Positions 43,325 through 55,373 of a DNA stretch of 64,000 bases are shown here, piece by piece. The position numbers were made by a program, and so were the translations under genes. A model generated the notes under the pieces. It saw only the letters and a program-made list of their open reading frames with translations. It was not told where the DNA came from and did not search any database. Positions within the stretch are counted from its first letter, which is position 1; each line of letters opens with the position of its first letter. Origin of the DNA: Gammaproteobacteria bacterium (GTDB lineage: Bacteria; Pseudomonadota; Gammaproteobacteria; Eutrophobiales; Eutrophobiaceae); contig SCUJ01000011.1 of NCBI GenBank assembly GCA_004297165.1, forward strand, positions 128,095 to 192,094, written 5' to 3'.

Positions 43325-43548
43325 CGAGGCTTGTTTTTATAAGGTCAATATACCGTGGTTGATCTATTCAACCGTACCTAACACCGGTAAGATCCATGCC
43401 CACGGTGAGGGCATCAAAGGAACGCCATGAACCACGATAACTGCCTATACAAGCCTCTTCCATGCCTTTCACCTCGGAAGGCTCCATACTTTCAGGCGGC
43501 TCTTTCTTTGGACACGTTTTGGATTCTGACTGTCCACGAGCATGCTCA

Positions 43549-45537
43549 ATGCCTGACCACAACTACTTCTCTAATTTAATCTGGCAGATCGCCGATCTGC
43601 TGCGTGGCCCTTATCGGCCGCCGCAGTACGAGCGCGTCATGCTACCGATGACGGTGCTGCGCCGGTTCGACTGCGTGCTCTCGCCCACCAAGGCCAAGGT
43701 CCTGGCCGAGCACGAAAGGCGCAAGGGGGGTAAGCTCGAAGGCGACGCCCTCGATACCAAGCTCAACCAGGCATCCGGCCAGCGCTTCCACAATCACTCG
43801 CCCCTCGACTTCGAGAAACTGAAGGGGGATCCCGACAACATCGAGAAACACCTGGTCAGCTACATCAAGGGTTTCTCGAAGAACGTCCGCGACATCTTCG
43901 ACTTCTTCGAATTCGAGGCCGAGATCGAGCGGATGCGCGAGGCGAACATCCTCTACCTCGTCATCTCCAAGTTCCGCGACGTGGACCTGCACCCGAACGC
44001 GGTGCCTAATGAGCAGATGGGCCTCATCTTCGAGAACCTCATCCGGCGCTTCAACGAACTGGCCAACGAGACCGCGGGCGATCACTTCACGCCGCGCGAG
44101 GTCATCCGGCTGATGGTGAACATCCTGTTCATCCATGACGACAAGCTTCTCGCCACGCCCGGAACGGTGCGCAAGCTGCTCGACCCGGCCTGCGGCACCG
44201 GCGGCATGCTGGCCGAGGCCCAGAACTACCTGCGCGAGCATCACGGCGCGGCCAAGCTCTACGTTTACGGGCAGGACTACAACAAGCGCGCCTTCGCCAC
44301 CGCGGCGTCCGACATGCTGATGAAACAGGTGGACCACAACGGCGGCGGCAACAACGTCCGCTTCGGCGACAGCTTCACCGAGGATCAGTTCGCGGGCGAG
44401 ACCTATGACTACTTCCTGACCAACCCACCCTTCGGTGTGGACTGGAAGAAACAGCAGAAGGAGATCCAGCAGGAGCGCGACAAGCGCGGCTTCGACGGCC
44501 GTTTTGGCGCCGGGCTGCCGCGCGTGAATGACGGTTCGCTGCTTTTCCTGCAACACATGGTCGACAAGTTCGAGCCTGTGCGCCCGGCGGAGCACAAACA
44601 CGGATCGCGCCTCGCCATCGTCTTCAGCGGATCACCGCTCTTCACCGGCGGCGCGGGCTCGGGTGAGAGCGACATCCGCAAGTGGATCATCGAGAACGAC
44701 TGGCTCGAAGCCATCATCGCCCTGCCGGAGCAGATGTTCTACAACACGGGCATCGGCACCTACGTCTGGATCGTCACCAACCGCAAGGAGAAGCGGCGCA
44801 AGGGCAGGATTCAGCTCCTCGATGCGCGCGCCGTGTGGACCGCGGGTGGCAGCGAGGACAACAAGCGCAGCCTCGGCGACAAGCGCCGGCACATCACCAA
44901 CAGCCAGATCGCCGAGATCGTCAAGCTCTACGGCCGGCAGACCGACGGCGAGACCTCCAGGACCTTCGACAACGCCGACTTCGGCTACACCCGCGTGACC
45001 GTCGAGCGGCCCCTGCGCCTGCGCTACCAGATGACCCTGGAAGACAAGTCTCGTTTTCTTGACGCGTGCCCGCACCTGCTCGACGACGTGCAGGCCATCG
45101 ACAAGGTGTTAGGTCGAGAGCCGAGGTTGGATTGGGATGCAGTCGAGAGCGACATTCAAGATGTTCTCGCAGAGAAAGGGAGCCGATGGAAGGCTTCGGA
45201 ATGGAAGCTTTTCCGGAATGTGTTCACGAAAAAAAACTCCGACGGCAAGCCAATACGGGAAGGTTGGGTGCAGAGCCCTGGAGAGCCTGATCCCGACCTG
45301 CGCGATTTCGAGAACGTGCCGCTCAAGGACGACATCGACGCCTACTTCGAACGCGAGGTGCGCCCACACGTGCCCGACGCCTGGATGGATCGAGCCAAGG
45401 ACAAGGTCGGCTACGAGATTAACTTCAACCGCCACTTCTACAAGTACACGCCGCCGCGTCCCTTGGAGATAATCGACGCGGAGCTCAAGCAGGCGGAAGA
45501 GGCGATCATGCGGTTGCTCCGGGAGGTGACGGAGTGA
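43549..45537 (+). CDS. hsdM: Type I restriction-modification system methyltransferase subunit HsdM
   Basis: N-terminal HsdM_N-type sequence (IWQIADLLRGPYRPPQYERVMLPMTVLRRFDCVL), AdoMet motif LDPACGTGGML, catalytic motif LTNPPFG; start chosen at MPDHNYF. Confidence 0.9.
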   Translation: MPDHNYFSNLIWQIADLLRGPYRPPQYERVMLPMTVLRRFDCVLSPTKAKVLAEHERRKGGKLEGDALDTKLNQASGQRFHNHSPLDFEKLKGDPDNIEKHLVSYIKGFSKNVRDIFDFFEFEAEIERMREANILYLVISKFRDVDLHPNAVPNEQMGLIFENLIRRFNELANETAGDHFTPREVIRLMVNILFIHDDKLLATPGTVRKLLDPACGTGGMLAEAQNYLREHHGAAKLYVYGQDYNKRAFATAASDMLMKQVDHNGGGNNVRFGDSFTEDQFAGETYDYFLTNPPFGVDWKKQQKEIQQERDKRGFDGRFGAGLPRVNDGSLLFLQHMVDKFEPVRPAEHKHGSRLAIVFSGSPLFTGGAGSGESDIRKWIIENDWLEAIIALPEQMFYNTGIGTYVWIVTNRKEKRRKGRIQLLDARAVWTAGGSEDNKRSLGDKRRHITNSQIAEIVKLYGRQTDGETSRTFDNADFGYTRVTVERPLRLRYQMTLEDKSRFLDACPHLLDDVQAIDKVLGREPRLDWDAVESDIQDVLAEKGSRWKASEWKLFRNVFTKKNSDGKPIREGWVQSPGEPDPDLRDFENVPLKDDIDAYFEREVRPHVPDAWMDRAKDKVGYEINFNRHFYKYTPPRPLEIIDAELKQAEEAIMRLLREVTE

Positions 45538-46811
45538 CCGTCGTCGAACAACGTCTGAAGTACTGCGTCCGGCGCCCGATCATAAATGGGGTCGGAGCGG
45601 CCGCTGAGCACGATGACCCCTCGTGGCCGCGATATGTGCGAATCACTGATATTGCTGGCCCCAGGAAACTGCGAGACGACACATTCATGTCGCTTCCCCC
45701 CGAGCAGGCAGCTGAGGCACCATTCAACGTCGGGGACATTCTTGCAGCGGCGGTCGGCGCCACTTTCGGCAAGACCTATCTTCACGCCAGTGACATAGGG
45801 CCGGCTGCGTTCGCGGGCTATCTGGTGCGAATCTCACCCGGTGCAGATTTCGAACCTCGCTTTGTGGCGTATTGGTCAGAAAGCCACCACTACTGGGATC
45901 AAGTCAATACAAGTGTTGTGCAATCGACGATCCAGAACTTCTCTGCGGCCAAGTATGCCGAGCTTCGACTACCAGCCCCGCCGCTTGAGACGCAATGCAT
46001 AATCGCCAACTACCTTGACCGAGAGACTGCGCGGCTGGATGCACTGGTGGCGGCGAAGGAGCGGGTGCTCGGGCTGTTGGCCGAGAAGCGCCGGGCAGTC
46101 ATCACACGCGCCGTCACCCGCGGCCTCGACCCCCGCGCGCGCCTCCGCGACTCTGGCATTCCCTGGCTCGGGGAGATTCCGGCGCATTGGGAAGCATGGA
46201 AGCTTGGGCACGTTGCATTTGTAGGGAATGGATCAACCCCGAACAGAGACAATCCAGAGTATTGGACGGAAGGGGTGATCCCTTGGCTCAACAGTTCAGT
46301 GGTCAATCAGGATGAAGTGACTGCATCCGACCAGTTTGTCACTCCAACAGCGTTCCGCGAATGTCATCTACCTTTGGTCAAGCCGGGAAGCGTTCTTATC
46401 GGAATAACCGGACAAGGGAAGACCCGAGGGAGCGCGGTGGTTCTGTCGTTCGAGGCAACGATAAATCAGCACCTCGCCTTTATCACGCCGAATGCCAATC
46501 TGCTAAATGCATGGTTCCTACGTTGGGCTCTGTTCGCTGCTTACGAGTTTCTCAGAAGCATCAGTGACGATGCAGGCGGAACCAAGGGTGCTCTTACCTG
46601 TGAGGCCGTCGCAGCACTCTACGTGCCTCTACCGCCACTCAACGACCAGAGAGCAATCGTCGCTCATGTTTCCTCGGAGGCGAGCAAGCTTGATGCTTTG
46701 AGGGTGGCGACCGAGCGCACGATTGCCTTGATCAAAGAGCGCCGCGCCGCGCTCATCGCTGCGGCAGTGACAGGCAGACATGCTCCTGACTTTGCGAGGG
46801 GATCGGCATGA
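45534..46811 (+). CDS. hsdS: Type I restriction-modification system specificity subunit HsdS
   Basis: Two target-recognition domains separated by the conserved central helix (LDALVAAKERVLGLLAEKRRAVITRAVTRGLDP) and a C-terminal repeat (LDALRVATERTIALIKERRAALIAAAVTG); GTG start overlaps the hsdM stop. Confidence 0.85.
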   Translation: MTVVEQRLKYCVRRPIINGVGAAAEHDDPSWPRYVRITDIAGPRKLRDDTFMSLPPEQAAEAPFNVGDILAAAVGATFGKTYLHASDIGPAAFAGYLVRISPGADFEPRFVAYWSESHHYWDQVNTSVVQSTIQNFSAAKYAELRLPAPPLETQCIIANYLDRETARLDALVAAKERVLGLLAEKRRAVITRAVTRGLDPRARLRDSGIPWLGEIPAHWEAWKLGHVAFVGNGSTPNRDNPEYWTEGVIPWLNSSVVNQDEVTASDQFVTPTAFRECHLPLVKPGSVLIGITGQGKTRGSAVVLSFEATINQHLAFITPNANLLNAWFLRWALFAAYEFLRSISDDAGGTKGALTCEAVAALYVPLPPLNDQRAIVAHVSSEASKLDALRVATERTIALIKERRAALIAAAVTGRHAPDFARGSA

Positions 46812-47713
46812 GGCATACAAGCCCATTACGCTATCCTGGCGGTAAGGCTGAACTAACGGGGTTCCTTACTGACGTGATCGATCTGAACGATTTGCGCGGA
46901 TGCCCTTACTACGAACCTTACGCTGGTGGTGCCGGGGCGGCGATAGGTCTTCTTAAGCACGGCGTTGTATCAGAGATATTTCTCAATGATGCAGACAGGC
47001 GAGTCTACGCCTTTTGGCGCGCGATACTCCAAAATAGCGAGCGTTTTGTGGAGCGCATTCACACCGTTCCTTTAAGTATTAAAGAATGGTATCGTCAACA
47101 CAAGATCTGCGCCCGACCGAGGTCGCACGCCCAGTTTGATCTGGGATTTTCCGCCTTCTACATGAATCGTTGCAACCGCTCAGGGGTTTTGAGCGGTGCA
47201 GGTCCAATCGGCGGCTACGAACAATCGGGTAAATGGCGAATGGATGTGCGCTTCAACCGCGAAACGCTTGCGAGACGCATCCTGAATCTATCTCGAATGA
47301 AGACTCAGATTCATGTGACCTGCGAGGATGCGATTGTCTTCCTTAAGAAGCAATTGCCGCGGGGGCGGGGTCGCAACCGAGTCTTTGTCTACCTTGATCC
47401 GCCGTATGTCAACAATGGCCAGCGTCTTTACCTGAATGCTTATCAACAAGATGACCACGCCAAGTTGTCGCGGTATCTAGACGATCAGACTGTGCTACCG
47501 TGGATTATGTCTTACGATGACAGTAGCTTGGTGCGGGAATTATATGTCAAGCAACAGATTGCACTCATGCCGATTCGCTATACTCTTCAAGAGAAACGTT
47601 CAGCACACGAACTTATCATTTCTCCTTGCCACGTTGCCATACCTAATGCCTGTCGGATTTATGGTCGGGAAAATCTGCTTCAAGTCTCTCATCACCAGGG
47701 AGGAGCATCATGA
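46808..47713 (+). CDS. Dam-family (D12 class) N6-adenine DNA methyltransferase, orphan, embedded in the Type I R-M operon
   Basis: Motifs align with E. coli Dam: RYPGGK (WAGGK), EPYAGGAG (EPFVGAGS), FYMNRCNRSG (LYLNRYGYNG), VYLDPPY (VYCDPPY); ATGA overlap with the hsdS stop. Confidence 0.85.
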   Translation: MRHTSPLRYPGGKAELTGFLTDVIDLNDLRGCPYYEPYAGGAGAAIGLLKHGVVSEIFLNDADRRVYAFWRAILQNSERFVERIHTVPLSIKEWYRQHKICARPRSHAQFDLGFSAFYMNRCNRSGVLSGAGPIGGYEQSGKWRMDVRFNRETLARRILNLSRMKTQIHVTCEDAIVFLKKQLPRGRGRNRVFVYLDPPYVNNGQRLYLNAYQQDDHAKLSRYLDDQTVLPWIMSYDDSSLVRELYVKQQIALMPIRYTLQEKRSAHELIISPCHVAIPNACRIYGRENLLQVSHHQGGAS

Positions 47714-48813
47714 TTACGAAAACAAATACCGAATCCATTCCTGTGAAAGAACTTCACTTTGACCGATTGAATCCTAGGCTTGCCGAATACGGAGTACGGC
47801 CAGAGACGACGGATAAAGAGATCCAGGAGATCCTTTGGGATGCCATGGATGTGCGCGAGTTGGTCCAGTCGATCGCTGCTAGCGGATTTTTCCGACATGA
47901 ACCGATTATTGTAGCCAAAGAGAAAAACAAGAACATCGTCATCGAAGGTAACCGGCGTCTCGCAGCGGTAAAAGTACTTCTCGATACTCAAGTCGCCAAG
48001 AAGAACGGGTGGGAAATTCCGACACTATCCAAGGATGAACGCAATGGTCTGGAGACTCTGCCCGTCATTTTTTCTGACCGTAAGGAATCATGGCGTTACT
48101 TAGGTTTTAAACACGTCAACGGTCCCGCAAAGTGGAGTAGCTACGCTAAGGCGAAGTACATAGCCGATATTCATCGTGACCACAAAATTTCTTTATCCGA
48201 TATCGCAAATCAGATCGGCGATCAGCATCGGACGGTACAACGTCTATATCGTGGACTGATGGTGATCGAGCAGGCCGAACGCATGAAGGTTTATGATCGG
48301 GAGGACAGATTTCGGCAACGACTCGCCTTCTCTCACCTCTACACCGGTCTGGATTACGATGGCGTCAGTTCTTTTATCAGCTTAAAAGCTGAAGACGAGG
48401 AGACAAAGAATCCTGTTCCCAAGGAAAAGGTGAAGGAATTGGGCGAGCTCTGCGTGTGGCTTTACGGCAGCAAGAAGGACAATCGCCCACCAGTCGTCGA
48501 ATCACAAAACCCCGACCTCAGGCGTCTCAATGCCGTCCTGAACAACCGAGAGGCGATAGCCGCACTGCGGGCCGGGTCAGAGCTTGTCAAGGCGTTCGAG
48601 ATCAGCAGACCCCCTACAGCTGTCTTCGAGGAGGCACTTCTGGCCGCCAAACGCGAACTCACTACCGCAAGGGCACACCTGACGACAGGATATGACAAGT
48701 CGGAAGCGCTACTGCGCGTTGTCGGCACCATCGCCGAGATGGCTGACGACATCTACAAAGAGATGGAACGAAAGAGAAACCCCGAGAAAACAAAGCGACT
48801 TACGGAGAAGTAA
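47710..48813 (+). CDS. ParB/Srx-superfamily protein (DndB/DGQHR-like or DUF262-like N-domain)
   Basis: N-terminal region has IIVAKEKNKNIVIEGNRRLAAVKVL, a ParB-like GxxR arginine motif (compare DGQHR/DGQQR), and a second motif IGDQHRTVQRLYRG; ATGA overlap with the Dam-like gene; lower GC. Confidence 0.55.
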   Translation: MITKTNTESIPVKELHFDRLNPRLAEYGVRPETTDKEIQEILWDAMDVRELVQSIAASGFFRHEPIIVAKEKNKNIVIEGNRRLAAVKVLLDTQVAKKNGWEIPTLSKDERNGLETLPVIFSDRKESWRYLGFKHVNGPAKWSSYAKAKYIADIHRDHKISLSDIANQIGDQHRTVQRLYRGLMVIEQAERMKVYDREDRFRQRLAFSHLYTGLDYDGVSSFISLKAEDEETKNPVPKEKVKELGELCVWLYGSKKDNRPPVVESQNPDLRRLNAVLNNREAIAALRAGSELVKAFEISRPPTAVFEEALLAAKRELTTARAHLTTGYDKSEALLRVVGTIAEMADDIYKEMERKRNPEKTKRLTEK

Positions 48814-48814
48814 T

Positions 48815-49747
48815 GTGTTCAAGCTGCCCGACTTGCCGTCATCGCAGGCAGAGGTCCACGAACTCGCTGATTTTGTAGAGTTATTGTGCTGGGTCCGTGG
48901 ATCAACATCGAAGCGTGAAGTTGTGGCTTATCTTGGGCGAGTGGATGATAACGATAACAATATTGGTTGTGACGACAATGAAGACGGGAACTCCGATTTT
49001 CTGGATGAGGTAATGAACGAGATCGAACGGCGTGTGTTCGCGTGCGGTGTCGGTTATCCGTTCCAACTCGATCTCGAAGGAACCGTCCTTAGATACAACA
49101 TGAACGATGACGGTGAAAGATCAATAATCTACCTCTACCTCTTGTTAAGTACGCGACTTAATATGACGAAAAACCGAGTTCACGAAAGAATTGATGGCAC
49201 ATCGTTGTTTGAGGAAGTCTGTGCCCATGTGTTAAAAAACTATTTGGGTAAAACAAGGGCGAAAGCACTGGTATTCGGTACTGCGGTAACCGAGTCATTT
49301 CAGGATAAGATCAAGGCGCTGTGCGAACAGTTGTGTGAAGGATCAGGTTACAAAAACCCAGATGTGATGCCTTCGGTTGATCGCGATGGTAAGTTAGATG
49401 TAGTTGCATGGGTCCCTTTTACGGACCGTCGTGCAGGTCAACTGATTGTTTTTTCGCAGTGTAAAACAGGAACTAATTGGAAAGATCATGTGGCACAACT
49501 GAACCCCGGTGCTTTCGTTCAGAAATGGATCGATGGCACTATCGCCGTTACTCCCGTGCGTTCATTTTGCGTTACGGAAGCTTGTGATCAATCGCGTTGG
49601 AATAGCGCCTGCATTGATGCAGGCATTCTGCTTGACCGGTGCCGACTGGTTGACTTCTGCGATAACATCGACCCGACACTGCTAAGTAATGTGAATCGCT
49701 GGACAACCGCGGCCAAGAGCCATGTGGTGAGTAAAATGGCATGGTAG
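48815..49747 (+). CDS. Hypothetical protein with a possible PD-(D/E)xK-like nuclease motif
   Basis: GTG start 1 nt after the upstream TAA; C-terminal half has DRDGKLDVVAWVPF...GQLIVFSQCKTG (D...QxK pattern); no family recognised with certainty; lower GC. Confidence 0.4.
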   Translation: MFKLPDLPSSQAEVHELADFVELLCWVRGSTSKREVVAYLGRVDDNDNNIGCDDNEDGNSDFLDEVMNEIERRVFACGVGYPFQLDLEGTVLRYNMNDDGERSIIYLYLLLSTRLNMTKNRVHERIDGTSLFEEVCAHVLKNYLGKTRAKALVFGTAVTESFQDKIKALCEQLCEGSGYKNPDVMPSVDRDGKLDVVAWVPFTDRRAGQLIVFSQCKTGTNWKDHVAQLNPGAFVQKWIDGTIAVTPVRSFCVTEACDQSRWNSACIDAGILLDRCRLVDFCDNIDPTLLSNVNRWTTAAKSHVVSKMAW

Positions 49748-49963: not shown

Positions 49964-50320
49964 GTGTGCGGTGTGACCCGCGTCGCTGTTCGCCCAGGGA
50001 TGCTGCGCTGGGCCTGCGAGCGCGCTCGTCAGCTCAGCGGAGGAGCGACTGCTGTGACACAATTGACTGACGATACACTCAGAGACGAGCTGATCCCCTA
50101 CCGCACCGCCGATGACGCCGTGCGCGTCGAGGCGCGCTACGAGTCCAAGACCTTCTGGCTCGACCAGCGATGCATAGCCGAGCTGTTCGGCGTCGACGTC
50201 CGCACCGTCAGCTACCACCTGAAGGAAGTCTACGCCTCGGAGGAGCTGACCCCGGAGACAACTCTCCAACAAATTTGGAGAGTTCAGCACGAGGCAGCCA
50301 TCATCCCGGAGGGCACATGA
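49964..50320 (+). CDS. RhuM-family N-terminal domain protein (truncated relative to full-length RhuM)
   Basis: ELIPYRTADDAVRVEARYESKTFWLDQRCIAELFGVDVRTVSYHLKEVYASEELTPETTLQQIWRVQHE matches the conserved RhuM N-terminus, but the protein ends after about 118 aa; its stop overlaps the next start (ATGA). Confidence 0.5.
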   Translation: MCGVTRVAVRPGMLRWACERARQLSGGATAVTQLTDDTLRDELIPYRTADDAVRVEARYESKTFWLDQRCIAELFGVDVRTVSYHLKEVYASEELTPETTLQQIWRVQHEAAIIPEGT

Positions 50321-51837
50321 CCACCCAGCCCCTCCTTGCCGACCTCCTCCGTTCCGGCGAGTGGACCGGCGCCGAATTCAAGGCCGCACGTCAGGGACTC
50401 CCGAAGTCGGCGTTTGAGACCGTCTCGGCTTTTGCCAACACCCGCGGCGGCTGTCTGGTCCTCGGCGTTACGCAGGACGGTGAGCAGTTCGAGGTGAGCG
50501 GCGTCGGCGAACCCGACAAGGTTCAGAACGACTTCCTCTCGGTGCTGCACGCCGACGGGAAGGTCAGCCACGATGTGGACATCACCGAACACCGCTACCA
50601 GCACGACGGCAAGGTCGCGCTCGCGTTCCGCATCGCCGAGAACCCGCGCACGCGCAAGCCCGTCTACCTCGACGGCGACATCCGCCGAACCTTTCTGCGC
50701 AAGGGCGGTGGCGACTACCGCGCTCAGCCGCACGAGATCGAGCGGATGTTGCGCGACCAGTCGGCGGATCGCTGGGACGGCCAGCCGTTCACGCGCGTCT
50801 CGCTCGACGAGGTGTTCCACTCGGCGAGCCTCACCTGGTACCGCGACCGCTTCCACGCCACGAACCCCGGCTTCGATGTCGAGCAGCCGCACCACGAGTT
50901 CCTCCACGACTGGGGCTACTTGGTGAAGGAAAGCGGCGCGTTCCTGCCGACGGGCGCGAGCGTTGCGCTGTTCGGCTCATTGCGCGGTGTTCGCAACCTG
51001 CTGCCGCGCCCGATCCTCGACGTGCAGTTCCTTGGCTACGGCAGTCACGACGAGATGCCCGAGACGCGCTGGATCGATCGCCTCGTGAGCGAAGTGAACA
51101 TCGTCGAAACCTGGCAGCAACTCCTCGCCAAGTACCTCTTCTTTATGCCCAAGCCGTTCCGCGACATCGACTCGGAAACGCTCGAGCGGCGCGACGCGCC
51201 CGCGGGTTTCCGTGTCTTCCGCGAGGCCGCGATGAACCTCCTGATTCACCAGGACTACGGCGACCACTCGCGCAAGGCGGTCATCCAGTTTTTCACCGAC
51301 GGCATTCGCTTCTGGAACCCCGGCGACAGCTTCGGCAACGAGACGCGGCTGCTCGAACCCGGAGAGAAGGAGGTGCGCAACCCCGCCATAGCGATGGGGA
51401 TGCGCCGAATCGGCATGTGCGAACAAGCCGGCACGGGCCTCCGGATGATGCGGCGCGAATGGCAGGCGATCGGCTACGCGGCACCGCTTTACGAGAATGA
51501 TCGTGTACATAAGGCATTCGAATCGTTTCTGCCGCAGTTGCGAGAAGTGGCTGTGGAGGTCACCCCCCAAGTCACCCCCCAAGTCACCCCCCAAGTCACC
51601 CCCCAAGTCACCCCCCAAGTCAGGCGGCTGCTGGATGCTATCGAAGGCGAGATGAGACTGGCTGACCTTATGGGCGGGTTGGGGCTGACCGACCGAAAGC
51701 ACTTCCGAACGCAGTACTGGCTGCCGGCATCCGAGCAAGGGCTGATCGAGATGACCCTGCCCGACAAGCCGAACAGCAGCAAGCAACGCTACAGGCTCAC
51801 GGAGTTGGGACATTTCACCAGACAGAGGAACCAATGA
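50317..51837 (+). CDS. AlbA_2/Schlafen-like divergent-AAA domain ATP-binding protein (putative regulator) with an internal VTPQ repeat
   Basis: N-terminus [42 protein letters not shown] is the AlbA_2 putative DNA-binding domain; C-terminal HATPase_c_4-like region ([15 protein letters not shown]); common resident of Type I R-M loci. Confidence 0.7.
51559..51618 (+). repeat. Five perfect tandem copies of the 12-bp unit GTCACCCCCCAA (encoding VTPQ), each containing a C6 tract
   Basis: Read directly from the sequence; in frame within the AlbA_2-like gene; followed by a partial sixth copy (GTCA). Confidence 0.9.
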
Positions 51838-54800
51838 CCGCGCCCCGCCACTCCGAAGCCGCCTTCGAAACCGTCATCGAAGCACACCTCCTCCAGCACG
51901 GCTACGTGACGATCGCGCCTGAGGGTTTCGATCGCGACCGCGCCGTCTTCCCGGAGACGGTGCTTGCCTTTATCCGCGAGACCCAACCCAATGAATGGAA
52001 AAAGCTGGACGCGCTTCATGGCGACAAAACTGGAGAGCAGATCATTGGCGATCTCTGCAAGTGGATGGACGCCAATGGATCACTTGCGACGTTGCGACAC
52101 GGCTTCAAGTGTTATGGGCGCACTCTACACGTCGCGTATTTCAAAGCAGCCCACGAGCTGAATCCGGAGCTTGAAGCGCGGTATGCCGCGAACCGGCTTG
52201 GCATCATCCGTCAGCTTCACTTTTCGCCCCGTTCCGAGAAGTCCCTCGATGTCACATTGAGCCTGAATGGGATTCCCGTCGCCACGCTGGAGCTAAAGAA
52301 TCCGCTTACGGGCCAACGGGTGGAGGATGCGCGCCGGCAGTACAGGCAGGACCGTGACCCGCGCGAACCCATCTTCGAGTTCAAGCGCCGCACGCTGGTG
52401 CATTTCGCGGTGGACACCGAGTCCGTGCTGATGACCACGCGCCTGGCGGGCACGGCGACGCACTTCCTTCCGTTCAACAAGGGCAACGACGGTGGCGCCG
52501 GCAACCCGCCCGACCCGGCGGGTCGCACCTATCGCACGGCGTACCTGTGGGAGGAAGTGTTGCAGCGGGATAGCCTGCTCGATCTGCTTGCGCGCTTCAT
52601 CCACCTGCAGATCGACGAGAAGCGCGATGACCAAGGCCGCAAGGTCAAGACCGAGGCTATGATCTTTCCCCGTTACCACCAGCTTCAGGCGGTGCGGATG
52701 TTGGTAGACGCGGCGCGCGCCGAGGGCGTTGGGCACAACTACCTCGTCGAGCATTCGGCCGGAAGCGGCAAGAGCAATACCATCGGTTGGCTGACGCATC
52801 GGCTCGCGTCCCTGCACGATGCCGCCAACCAGCGCGTATTCGATAGCGTGATCGTGGTGACCGACCGCGTCGTGCTCGACCAGCAGTTGCAGGACACGAT
52901 CTACCAGTTCGAGCACAAGCGTGGCGTCGTACAGCGGATCGACGAGAGCTCGCGGCAGCTTGCGGAAGCGTTGGAGAACGCGGTGCCGGTGATCATCACC
53001 ACGTTGCAGAAATTTCCCTTCGTCTCGCGACAGTTGCTTAAAATTGCAGAGGAGCGCGGCGAGACCGGCACGGGGACACTCGCTACCCGGCGTTGCGCCG
53101 TAATCCTTGATGAGGCCCACAGTTCGCAGGGTGGCGAGACGGCGACCGACCTCAAGGAAGTGCTGGGTGGTGAGGGACTGCGGGACGAAGCGAAGAATCG
53201 CGCGGTCGAGGAAGGCCGCGACGACATGGAGGAGCTGTTCCGCAGCATGGCCAAGCGCGGCAGGCAAGCGAACCTGAGCTTTTTCGCCTTCACTGCCACG
53301 CCCAAGCACAAAACGCTCGCCGTGTTTGGCCGCGATGGGCAGCCGGCACACCGCTACACGATGCGACAGGCGATCGAGGAGGAGTTCATCCTCGACGTTC
53401 TGAAACACTACACGAGCTACGCGACCTATTTCAAATTGCTGAAGGCGTGCGAGGACGATCCAAACGTCGAGCGGAAAAAAGCCGCGCAGGCTCTGGGGCG
53501 CTTCATGAAGTTGCACCCGCACAACATCGCGCAGAAGACCGAGGTGATGGTCGAGCACTTCCAGGCCGTCACTCGGCACAAGATCGGCGGTCGCGCCAAG
53601 GCGATGGTGGTCACTGGTTCACGTCTGGAAGCGGTGCGCTACAAGCAGGGCTTTGATCGCTACATCCAGGAGAAAGGCTACGCCATCAAGTCGCTGGTGG
53701 CGTTCTCTGGAACGGTGCTAGACGACAAGCTGGCCGGTGTCACCTACACCGAACCGGGCATGAACCACGGCATCTCCGAGAAAGAACTGCCCGAGAAATT
53801 CGCAACGCAGGAGTATCAGGTGCTGCTCGTCGCGGAAAAGTACCAAACTGGTTTCGATCAGCCGCTCCTGCACACGATGTTCGTGGACAAGCGCCTCGCG
53901 GGGATCCAGGCCGTGCAGACCTTGTCGAGGCTGAACCGCATTCACCCGCTCAAGGAAGACACGTTCGTCCTCGACTTCGTCAATGACCGCGAGGAGATCC
54001 GCGAAGCCTTCAAGGTCTACTACGAAGGCGCGGAGATGGGTGAGGAAGTCGACCCCGCCCGCATGTATGCGATAAAGGGTGAACTGGACGCCTCGGGGAT
54101 CTATCTCGACGAGGAGGTCGAGCGATTCAGCGCGGTCTATTTCAAGCCGAAGCAGCGGCAAAGCGCGCTGGATCACCAGGCGATGAATGCGGCGCTCGAC
54201 CCGGCGGTCTCGCGTTTCACGGTTCGCCAGAAGGACAACGAGGAAGAGGCGGAACTCTGGCGCGGCAAGATGCAGGCTTTTCTCAACCTCTACGCCTTCC
54301 TGAGCCAGGTGATCCCGTACCAGGACTCTGACCTCGAGCGGTTGTACGTGTTTCTCCGTCACCTTGCGGCGAAGCTGCCTCGTCGCAAGAGCGGCCCGGC
54401 GTACCAGTTCGATGACGAGGTACGGCTCGAATACTACCGCCTGCAGAAGATTAGCGAGGGGTCCATCTCGTTGAAGGACGGTGAAGCCCGGCGTCTCGAT
54501 GGCCCTACTGAGGTTGGCAGTGGCTTGGTTCGCTCGCAACCCGTGCCGCTGTCGCAGCTCATCGACGTAGTGAACGAGCGCTTCGGGACAGATTTCAACC
54601 AGGCTGACCAGTTATTTTTCGACCAGATCGTCGAGGCTGCCATGGCCGACAACAGCCTGCGGCAGGCAGCGGCAGTTAACCCCGGCGATAAATTCGAGCT
54701 GGTATTCAAGAATCTGCTTGAGAAGCTGTTCGTCGAGCGCATGGATCAGAACGAGGAGATCTTTGTCCGATTCATGAACGACGCGCCCTTCCAGAAGATC

Positions 54801-55373
54801 GTGACGGCATGGATGGCGTCGAAGGCGTATCGACGGTTACGAAGCGGTGCCGCTACCGAAGCGGAACAACATGCGATCGTACCTGCGCTGCCGCCACACT
54901 TGCGAATCGTCGAACCAAGACTTGAGGATCGCTTCGTCACCTGTGTGCCACTCGTTCCGCTAAAGGCCGCCGCCGGCGCCTTCGGCGATCCGCAGCACGT
55001 CGAGGAAAATGGCTTCGACTGGGTCGAGGTCAAGACGCGCCACCGGCTTCGTGCCGGAATGTTCGTTGCCCAGGTCGTCGGCAAGTCGATGGAGCCGATG
55101 ATCCCGGATGAGGCGTGGTGTTTGTTTCGAGCGCCGGTGGAGGGTTCACGGCAGGGCAAGACGGTTCTCGTACAACTGCGGGATGATATCGACCCGGAAA
55201 CTGGCGAGCGTTACACAGTCAAGCGGTATGAGAGCGAAAAGGTGAGTCATGACGACTCCTGGAGTCACAAGAGGATCACGCTGAAACCACTCAACCCTGA
55301 CTTCGAACCTATCGTCCTGGCAGACAATGGTTTGGACTCGCAGGTCGTGGCTGAGATGATTGAAGTGCTGTAA
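51834..55373 (+). CDS. hsdR: Type I restriction enzyme R subunit HsdR with a C-terminal LexA/UmuD-like S24 peptidase domain
   Basis: N-terminal PD-(D/E)xK nuclease ([16 protein letters not shown]); helicase motifs ([48 protein letters not shown]); HsdR C-terminal helical domain; then aa about 1037-1179 align with the LexA C-terminal domain ([13 protein letters not shown] / LPLVGRVAAGEPL; VGKSMEPMI / SGMSMKDIG; YTVKRYE / VTVKRLK; [11 protein letters not shown] / PENSEFKPIVV). ATGA overlap with the upstream gene. Confidence 0.9.

Follow-up and report, generated by a model that had tools for sequence, protein, structure and literature searches.

A three-gene cassette between hsdS and hsdR

We analyzed a 64,000-nucleotide (nt) stretch of forward-strand DNA from a Gammaproteobacteria bacterium (GenBank assembly GCA_004297165.1, contig SCUJ01000011.1, positions 128,095 to 192,094), which we call the window and in whose coordinates gene positions are given. 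Between hsdS and hsdR of a Type I restriction-modification (R-M) system, the window contains three adjacent genes encoding a DNA methylase, a ParB-like protein and a third protein, G3, with a predicted restriction-nuclease-like domain. The trio and the two Type I genes to which it is coupled are listed below, with protein lengths in amino acids (aa).

43462-45537, + strand, 691 aa: hsdM of the host Type I system (Pfam N6_Mtase and HsdM_N), upstream of the cassette
45534-46811, + strand, 425 aa: hsdS of the host Type I system (Pfam Methylase_S), overlap-coupled to the cassette
46808-47713, + strand, 301 aa: D12-class (Dam-family) N6-adenine DNA methyltransferase
47710-48813, + strand, 367 aa: ParB-like gene
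48815-49747, + strand, 310 aa: third gene (G3), GTG start

The original prediction, made from the DNA letters, had placed 4-nt overlaps at 45534, 46808 and 47710 and a 1-nt gap before 48815, and all four are present. The hsdS GTG at 45534 lies within the end of hsdM at 45537 (GTGA), the methylase ATG at 46808 within the end of hsdS at 46811 (ATGA), and the ParB-like ATG at 47710 within the end of the methylase gene at 47713 (ATGA). A single nucleotide separates the ParB-like stop codon (48811-48813) from the GTG of G3 at 48815. Shine-Dalgarno-like runs (GGAG/GGGAGG) occur 5-9 nt 5' of each of these starts. The mechanical open reading frame (ORF) of G3 extends back to an ATG at 48692; since 31 homologs begin with MFKLP at the position of the GTG at 48815, we assigned the gene to 48815-49747. 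Consensus scans for promoters and terminators around the trio scored below shuffle expectation and were uninformative, with no consensus promoter before the trio, and a search for direct or inverted repeats bounding the insertion gave none that was convincing. The overlaps make co-transcription of the five genes plausible, as had been proposed, and the trio is probably transcribed by read-through from the hsd promoter.

In base composition, the trio is foreign to the hsd genes. For the methylase, ParB-like and G3 genes, respectively, the G+C content (GC) is 0.504, 0.508 and 0.478, and the GC at third codon positions (GC3) is 0.51, 0.57 and 0.49. This compares with a GC of 0.60-0.64 and a GC3 of 0.84, 0.84 and 0.77 for hsdM, an AlbA_2-domain gene downstream of the trio, and hsdR. 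The claim that the trio is lower in GC than hsdM and hsdR was thus correct (GC3 0.49-0.57 versus 0.77-0.84).

The trio is a conserved, mobile unit

A scan with a G3 profile, using one genome per species, yielded 80 loci. G3 is present in all of them because they were selected by G3 homology, and gene order was counted where 2.15 kb or more of upstream DNA was available (69 loci). Methylase, ParB-like and G3 genes are colinear on a single strand with tight junctions in 58 of the 69, and the phyla represented include Pseudomonadota, Nitrospirota, Planctomycetota, Verrucomicrobiota, Bacteroidota, Chloroflexota, Cyanobacteria and others. This neighborhood survey bears out the suggestion of a conserved methylation-linked, defense-type module. 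The identities of the three proteins to their window counterparts co-vary (r = 0.91-0.94 across 55 loci), which indicates that the three genes travel together.

The D12 methylase gene is on the opposite strand in five loci (L027, L037, L038, L045 and L051) and an N6_N4 methylase is adjacent in L080; where the D12 gene is not upstream, there is usually an adjacent methylase of another kind or strand. Clustering of the flanking ORFs in the 80 loci in search of a fourth conserved gene gave only antisense shadows of the trio. No ParA partner was found, the methylase and G3 being the only conserved neighbors of the ParB-like gene, and gene clusters other than the trio are each shared by 4 of the 80 loci at most. 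The loci are mostly chromosomal with variable flanks, the close family occurs on only 6 IMG/VR contigs, and the GC of the cassette is below that of its flanks in 50 of 54 loci. The trio is therefore an autonomous, self-contained and horizontally mobile unit rather than a partner to the Type I enzyme.

The methylase and the ParB-like protein

Judged by its motifs, the first gene encodes an intact D12 (Dam-family) methylase, in agreement with the earlier Dam-family call. The protein matches Pfam MethyltransfD12 above threshold (E = 1.1e-15, aa 9-251), and contains the S-adenosylmethionine (SAM) motif EPYAGGAG at aa 36-43 (YAGGAG = nt 46919-36) and the catalytic motif DPPY at aa 197-200 (nt 47396-47407). 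It also matches the PADLOC model PD-Lambda-5_B (PDLC04018) with E = 7.2e-101, aa 2-282 aligning to profile positions 2-279 of 291. PD-lambda-5 is a two-gene "ParB/HEPN, methyltransferase" system from a P2-like prophage, which was validated as anti-phage, protects against most of the phages tested, was cloned in an mrr-deleted host, and is described as "RM+Abi" (Vassallo et al. 2022, PMC9519451). Our own reading of the mrr-deleted host requirement, on which the paper is silent, is that the PD-lambda-5 methylase is active in vivo.

The ParB-like protein contains an N-terminal ParB/Srx-fold domain (approximately aa 8-145), followed by a helix-turn-helix (HTH)-like segment (IANQIGDQHRTVQRLYRG, aa 165-182) and a helical C-terminal part. 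Invariant in the N-domain are NPR (21-23), the EGNRR of the motif EGNRRLAA (79-86), and H135. Within EGNRRLAA, GNRR occupies aa 80-83 (nt 47947-47958), and E79-G-N-R-R-L84 is unchanged in the homologs, including those from phages. EGNRRLAA pairs with GERRL of H. pylori ParB, in a weak match (E = 0.011), and the search for a solved structure of a relative gave only a marginal ParB match. The protein thus has both the ParB/Srx N-domain fold and a GxxR (GERR-type) nucleotide-pocket motif, and the ParB-like call stands. The NCBIfam model TIGR00180 (parB_part) scores 26.4 on the protein against a cut-off of 58.45 and is sub-threshold.

The more specific assignment of this protein to a DGQHR/DUF262/DndB type was rejected. 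Its motif is a canonical EGNRRLAA, Pfam GmrSD_N falls short of its 33.2-bit cut-off (13.6 bits, E = 0.072), and the NCBIfam DndB models give no match at E <= 1. A HEPN domain was likewise discarded, since the R-x4-H at 204-209 is lost in distant homologs.

The protein is 70-88% identical to homologs from Latescibacterota, Acidobacteriota, Armatimonadota, Nitrospirota, Planctomycetota and Pseudomonas. Such cross-phylum identity is unusually high for a defense protein; the ParB-like protein is more conserved than G3 in 55 of 55 loci, and more than the methylase in 46 of 55.

The third protein is predicted to resemble restriction nucleases

G3 is predicted, with moderate support, to comprise a winged helix and a C-terminal restriction-endonuclease-like (PD-(D/E)xK-type) domain. 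The structure model (pLDDT 81.6, pTM 0.84) has a winged helix at its N-terminus as well as an alpha/beta domain, and its nearest structural neighbors are catalytic restriction-nuclease domains. A Foldseek search of the model against the PDB returned no significant match, no solved structure of any G3 relative was found, and a scan of all 32 aligned members gave no Pfam, NCBIfam or PADLOC family.

Sequence alignment of the close family supports the D...QCK pattern that had been pointed out in this protein: E133, D195, Q215-C-K217 and DRCR 274-277 are invariant. D195 (nt 49397-49399) lies just before a strand of the model, Q215-C-K217 (nt 49457-49465) at the end of the next strand, and E133 on a helix. 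G3 also carries an acidic, Asn-rich conserved loop (DDNDNNIGCDDNEDGN, aa 44-59, window 48944-48991), in which N46, N49, G51 and D54 are invariant and which is the sole part of the model with pLDDT below 50. The loop may possibly be a metal-binding, DNA-mimicking or partner-binding element.

The G3 family comprises 2,278 clusters at 50% identity (E <= 1e-3), of which 370 remain at E <= 1e-30, from many phyla. As the family has no Pfam, NCBIfam or PADLOC model, defense finders may miss or mislabel a common cassette. ParB-G3 fusions were sought as a Rosetta stone, and the best 150 of the 2,278 profile matches are all stand-alone proteins of approximately 140-410 aa. A search of a plasmid collection for G3 gave two weak partial matches only.

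The hsdS-hsdR gap behaves as a cargo hotspot

Downstream of the trio, the remainder of the hsdS-hsdR gap and hsdR itself are arranged as follows.

49748 to approximately 50050: spacer of approximately 300 nt
49964-50320, + strand, 118 aa: presumed truncated rhuM-like ORF (matches PADLOC PDC-S05)
50317 (ATG)-51837, + strand, approximately 506 aa: AlbA_2/HATPase_c_4/Fic-like_C gene (Pfam matches of a 555-aa ORF)
51834-55373, + strand, 1179 aa: hsdR (Pfam SWI2_SNF2, HSDR_N, T1R_D3-like and ResIII)

The start of the AlbA_2 gene overlaps the stop of the preceding ORF (ATGA, 50317-50320), and an ATGA overlap also joins the stop of the AlbA_2 gene to the start of hsdR. The 118-aa ORF, which we take to be a truncated rhuM-like gene, matches only the N-terminal part of the PDC-S05 models (profiles of up to 468 positions), and looks like a remnant of earlier cargo. 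Because this remnant and the AlbA_2 gene share the gap with the trio, the gap behaves as an insertion hotspot, and the locus is a clean example of cargo stacking in a Type I hsdS-hsdR gap.

Type I genes lie next to the trio in only 3 of the 80 loci (L002, L003 and L034), with hsdR 71-84% identical to that of the window, so that the nesting between hsdS and hsdR indicates a cargo hotspot rather than co-function. In L003 the gap also carries DUF6575, HTH-M78 and PIN genes, and in L034 an AAA_15 ATPase gene precedes the trio. The proposal of a co-functioning five-gene operon treats the five genes as one machine, in which the trio is a Type I accessory, for example an additional level of methylation or a reserve nuclease dependent on HsdM, HsdS and HsdR. 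The unbroken overlap coupling from hsdM through G3, the lack of a consensus promoter before the trio and the three Type I-linked loci are in keeping with such a machine. We nevertheless consider it very improbable, since 77 of the 80 loci have no such Type I genes and therefore no consistent hsdM/S/R co-occurrence, no non-trio cluster exceeds 4 of 80, the trio is foreign in composition to the hsd genes, and the same gap holds unrelated cargo in the window, in L003 and in L034. Independent defense genes embedded in Type I loci are, moreover, a described pattern (10.1101/2024.01.29.577857). Functional dependence of the trio on the Type I genes is thus not supported; of the operon proposal, the co-transcription stands and the co-function does not.

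Two further features of the surrounding genes were observed. HsdR has a C-terminal Peptidase_S24 (LexA/UmuD-like) domain (aa 1044-1164, window 54963-55325; E = 1.5e-6, 28.3 bits against a cut-off of 23.3). The hsdR homologs of L002, L003 and L034 align to only approximately 85% of the window HsdR query, and may therefore lack this tail. Inside the AlbA_2/HATPase_c_4 gene, a perfect 12-nt tandem repeat (GTCACCCCCCAA, 5.3 copies, window 51559-51622) encodes in-frame TPQV repeats, so that copy number could vary with the frame intact.

Remote relatives in P2-like phages

A tblastn search revealed a remote ParB/G3 pair in the P2-like phages vB_EcoM-12474III, Wphi, HQ103 and L-413C and in a Pseudomonas phage. 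The phage cassettes include the following.

Wphi: gp98-gp96-mth
vB_EcoM-12474III: gp04-gp06
Pseudomonas phage: D14A

The ParB-like protein matches PHROG 3694 over its full length, and G3 matches PHROG 3984 and PHROG 14650, with an hhalign probability of 95% over 264 columns against Wphi gp96. The phage cassettes share with the trio the same two protein families, encoded as an overlapping or abutting pair with a DNA methylase gene adjacent. They differ in that sequence identity reaches only 24-32%, the methylase gene lies on the opposite strand and encodes a C5-cytosine enzyme (L081, L082 and L083), the lysine of the nuclease motif is replaced (Q-C-G), and all are annotated as hypothetical. In Yersinia phage HQ103 (L084, 2327-3352), the ParB/G3-like pair has no annotated adjacent methylase, and approximately 1 kb is unannotated where its relatives carry the methylase gene.

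The phage cassettes lie between the portal gene and gpA, the P2 hotspot that houses tin, old and other defenses. The original prediction had offered, as an alternative, that the trio is a phage-derived anti-restriction or epigenetic module. Remote homologs of the ParB-like protein and G3 do occur in P2-like phages, but they sit in a known defense hotspot. A related possibility is a non-defense maintenance or epigenetic module of mobile elements, in which the methylase shields the element or regulates genes, and the ParB-like protein and G3 serve partition, replication or post-segregational killing. Phages and plasmids often pair a ParB with a methylase (weak matches link the trio to PHROG 498 and to ParB-like partition families), the trio has these P2-like phage relatives, and R-M-type cassettes can be addiction modules. 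We judge this role rather improbable: there is no ParA partner or other conserved gene, the loci are mostly chromosomal with variable flanks and only 6 IMG/VR contigs, and the phage copies occupy a defense hotspot and not a partition locus. PD-lambda-5, which shares the methylase family and the ParB N-domain, is furthermore validated as anti-phage.

A proposed restriction-modification-like mechanism

The exchangeable methylase beside a constant ParB/G3 pair, together with the mobility, AT-richness and location in defense hotspots, is the pattern of an R-M system. We favor, as reasonably likely, that the trio is a self-contained, mobile, R-M-like anti-phage cassette, a sibling of PD-lambda-5, inserted into the hsdS-hsdR cargo hotspot of an unrelated Type I system.

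Under this proposal, the D12 methylase, recognizable by its family and catalytic motifs, would be active and would mark adenines in a short motif of host DNA. The ParB-like protein would bind DNA through its HTH segment, with the N-domain as a nucleotide-gated switch comparable to those of ParB, Noc and KorB. It would either load at sites of incoming DNA that lack methylation or send a signal from them; we infer the nucleotide, its gating and the sensitivity to methylation from the fold and the motifs. G3, with its fold-level similarity to restriction nucleases and its invariant D/QxK residues, would be recruited or licensed through interaction with the ParB-like protein, and would cut the unmarked DNA.

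Several observations weigh against this proposal. Three loci (L039, L044 and L056) have no methylase gene beside the ParB/G3 pair. The lysine equivalent to K217 is not conserved in the wider G3 family, as the P2-like phage homologs read Q-C-G instead of Q-C-K. Pfam ParB_N is sub-threshold on the ParB-like N-domain (15.9 bits against a cut-off of 26.3), and the CTP-hydrolysis residues of ParB, E111/N112, are presumably replaced by H135-V-N137, by our by-eye comparison with B. subtilis Spo0J; nucleotide binding or hydrolysis by the ParB-like protein is therefore putative. Its 70-88% identity across phyla is unusual for a specificity subunit. Finally, nuclease, NTPase and kinase activities all occur among ParB/Srx proteins, so that the division of labor could be reversed.

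Such a reversal is the main rival, the Type I and maintenance explanations being less likely. The ParB-like protein would be the effector, either a nuclease or a nucleotide-depleting NTPase acting in an abortive style, a role already suggested for further ParB/Srx conflict proteins, G3 would sense the state of the DNA via its winged helix, and the methylase would again mark self. In favor of this reading, conservation among the three is highest in the ParB-like protein, which would befit an enzyme, phage homologs of G3 lack the Q-x-K lysine, and PD-lambda-5 was described as "RM+Abi". On the other hand, the nearest structural neighbors of G3 are catalytic restriction-nuclease domains, acidic and lysine residues are invariant in its close family, and the ParB-type HTH segment that the ParB-like protein retains is fitting for a protein that loads onto DNA. 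On balance we find the reversed arrangement unlikely.

A more specific version of our preferred scheme, with the ParB-like protein as sensor and G3 as nuclease, is doubtful. Here the ParB-like protein would be a true nucleotide-gated clamp (using CTP or another NTP), one that slides after loading where methylation is lacking and either brings in or licenses the nuclease, with PD-lambda-5 as a fused, effector-swapped sibling. If so, the trio would represent a class of R-M systems in which a ParB-type switch provides long-range communication, replacing the helicase-like ATPases of Types I, III and ISP. A ParB-like clamp that reads methylation state would extend the CTP-switch paradigm from chromosome segregation to immunity.

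The cassette is real, widespread, unannotated and of an expected type. It is a natural "split" relative of the mechanistically opaque PD-lambda-5, with sensor and effector as separate proteins, so that experiments could address the role of the ParB N-domain on its own.

Comparison with known systems

The ParB-like protein shares its layout of N-domain and HTH with the CTP-gated clamps ParB, Noc and KorB. The trio differs from these in having no ParA, no parS context, only sub-threshold matches to the ParB models, and a nuclease-like partner. With GmrSD, SspE, DndB and DpdB it has in common a ParB/Srx-fold domain, putatively NTP-binding in the trio, within a conflict system linked to DNA modification. 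The motif, however, is a canonical ParB-type EGNRR and not DGQ(H/Q)R, the trio has no HNH/DUF1524 partner domain, and the mark would be base methylation and not phosphorothioate or deazaguanine.

Type II R-M systems with PD-(D/E)xK endonucleases, including the two-subunit BspD6I and BbvCI, are similar in placing a methylase beside a restriction-fold nuclease (predicted in the case of G3), and in their exchangeable methylase class, low GC, high mobility and tight operon. The window methylase has the SAM motif and catalytic (D/N)PPY of an active-looking Type II methylase. Classical Type II systems have no equivalent of the obligatory and very conserved ParB/Srx-fold partner with its NTP-pocket motif.

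PDC-M38 is an untested two-gene defense candidate from a guilt-by-embedding screen, found embedded in other defense systems (10.1101/2024.01.29.577857). PDC-M38A matches aa 47-301 of the ParB-like protein (E = 1e-22), extending past the ParB N-domain. The match covers only positions 60-313 of the 715 in the PDC-M38A profile, and G3 matches no PADLOC model.

PD-lambda-5 resembles the trio in several respects. The window methylase belongs, over its full length, to the PD-lambda-5 B family, the ParB N-domain is of the PD-lambda-5 A sub-type with IEGNRRLAA common to both, and the contexts are of the same kinds, the P2-phage hotspot and defense loci. Compared with a full-length PD-lambda-5_A-like protein, the ParB-like protein aligns with an hhalign probability of 97% and 30% identity over 129 columns (aa 9-144). 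The match to PADLOC PD-Lambda-5_A covers aa 9-169 on positions 13-175 of 473 only, short of full-length membership.

The two systems differ in gene number and in the effector part. PD-lambda-5 has two genes where the trio has three, and its A component is a single ParB/"HEPN" protein (profiles of 428-613 positions). The C-terminal two thirds of the window ParB-like protein have no detectable homology to PD-lambda-5_A, and the separate 310-aa G3, obligatory here, is unrelated to it; G3 as the split-off C-terminal half of PD-lambda-5_A was rejected (hhalign probability 0.15%). The role of the "HEPN" C-terminal part of PD-lambda-5_A appears to be taken here by a separate nuclease-like protein. 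In three Bacteroidota loci (L058, 8885-13221; L066, 6650-10927; L070, 7972-12570), the trio and a true full-length PD-lambda-5_A occur together around a single D12 methylase of the PD-lambda-5_B type, which suggests that a single methylation mark serves two different effector modules.

A literature search turned up the first description and census papers but neither a name for the trio nor a mechanism for PD-lambda-5. The earlier statement that the arrangement is not a named system accordingly holds in part: PD-lambda-5 accounts for the methylase and the ParB N-domain, and the three-gene architecture is without a name. On sequence grounds, then, the trio is a three-gene relative, or sibling, of PD-lambda-5, and it is the architecture with a separate nuclease-like protein that is its unnamed part.

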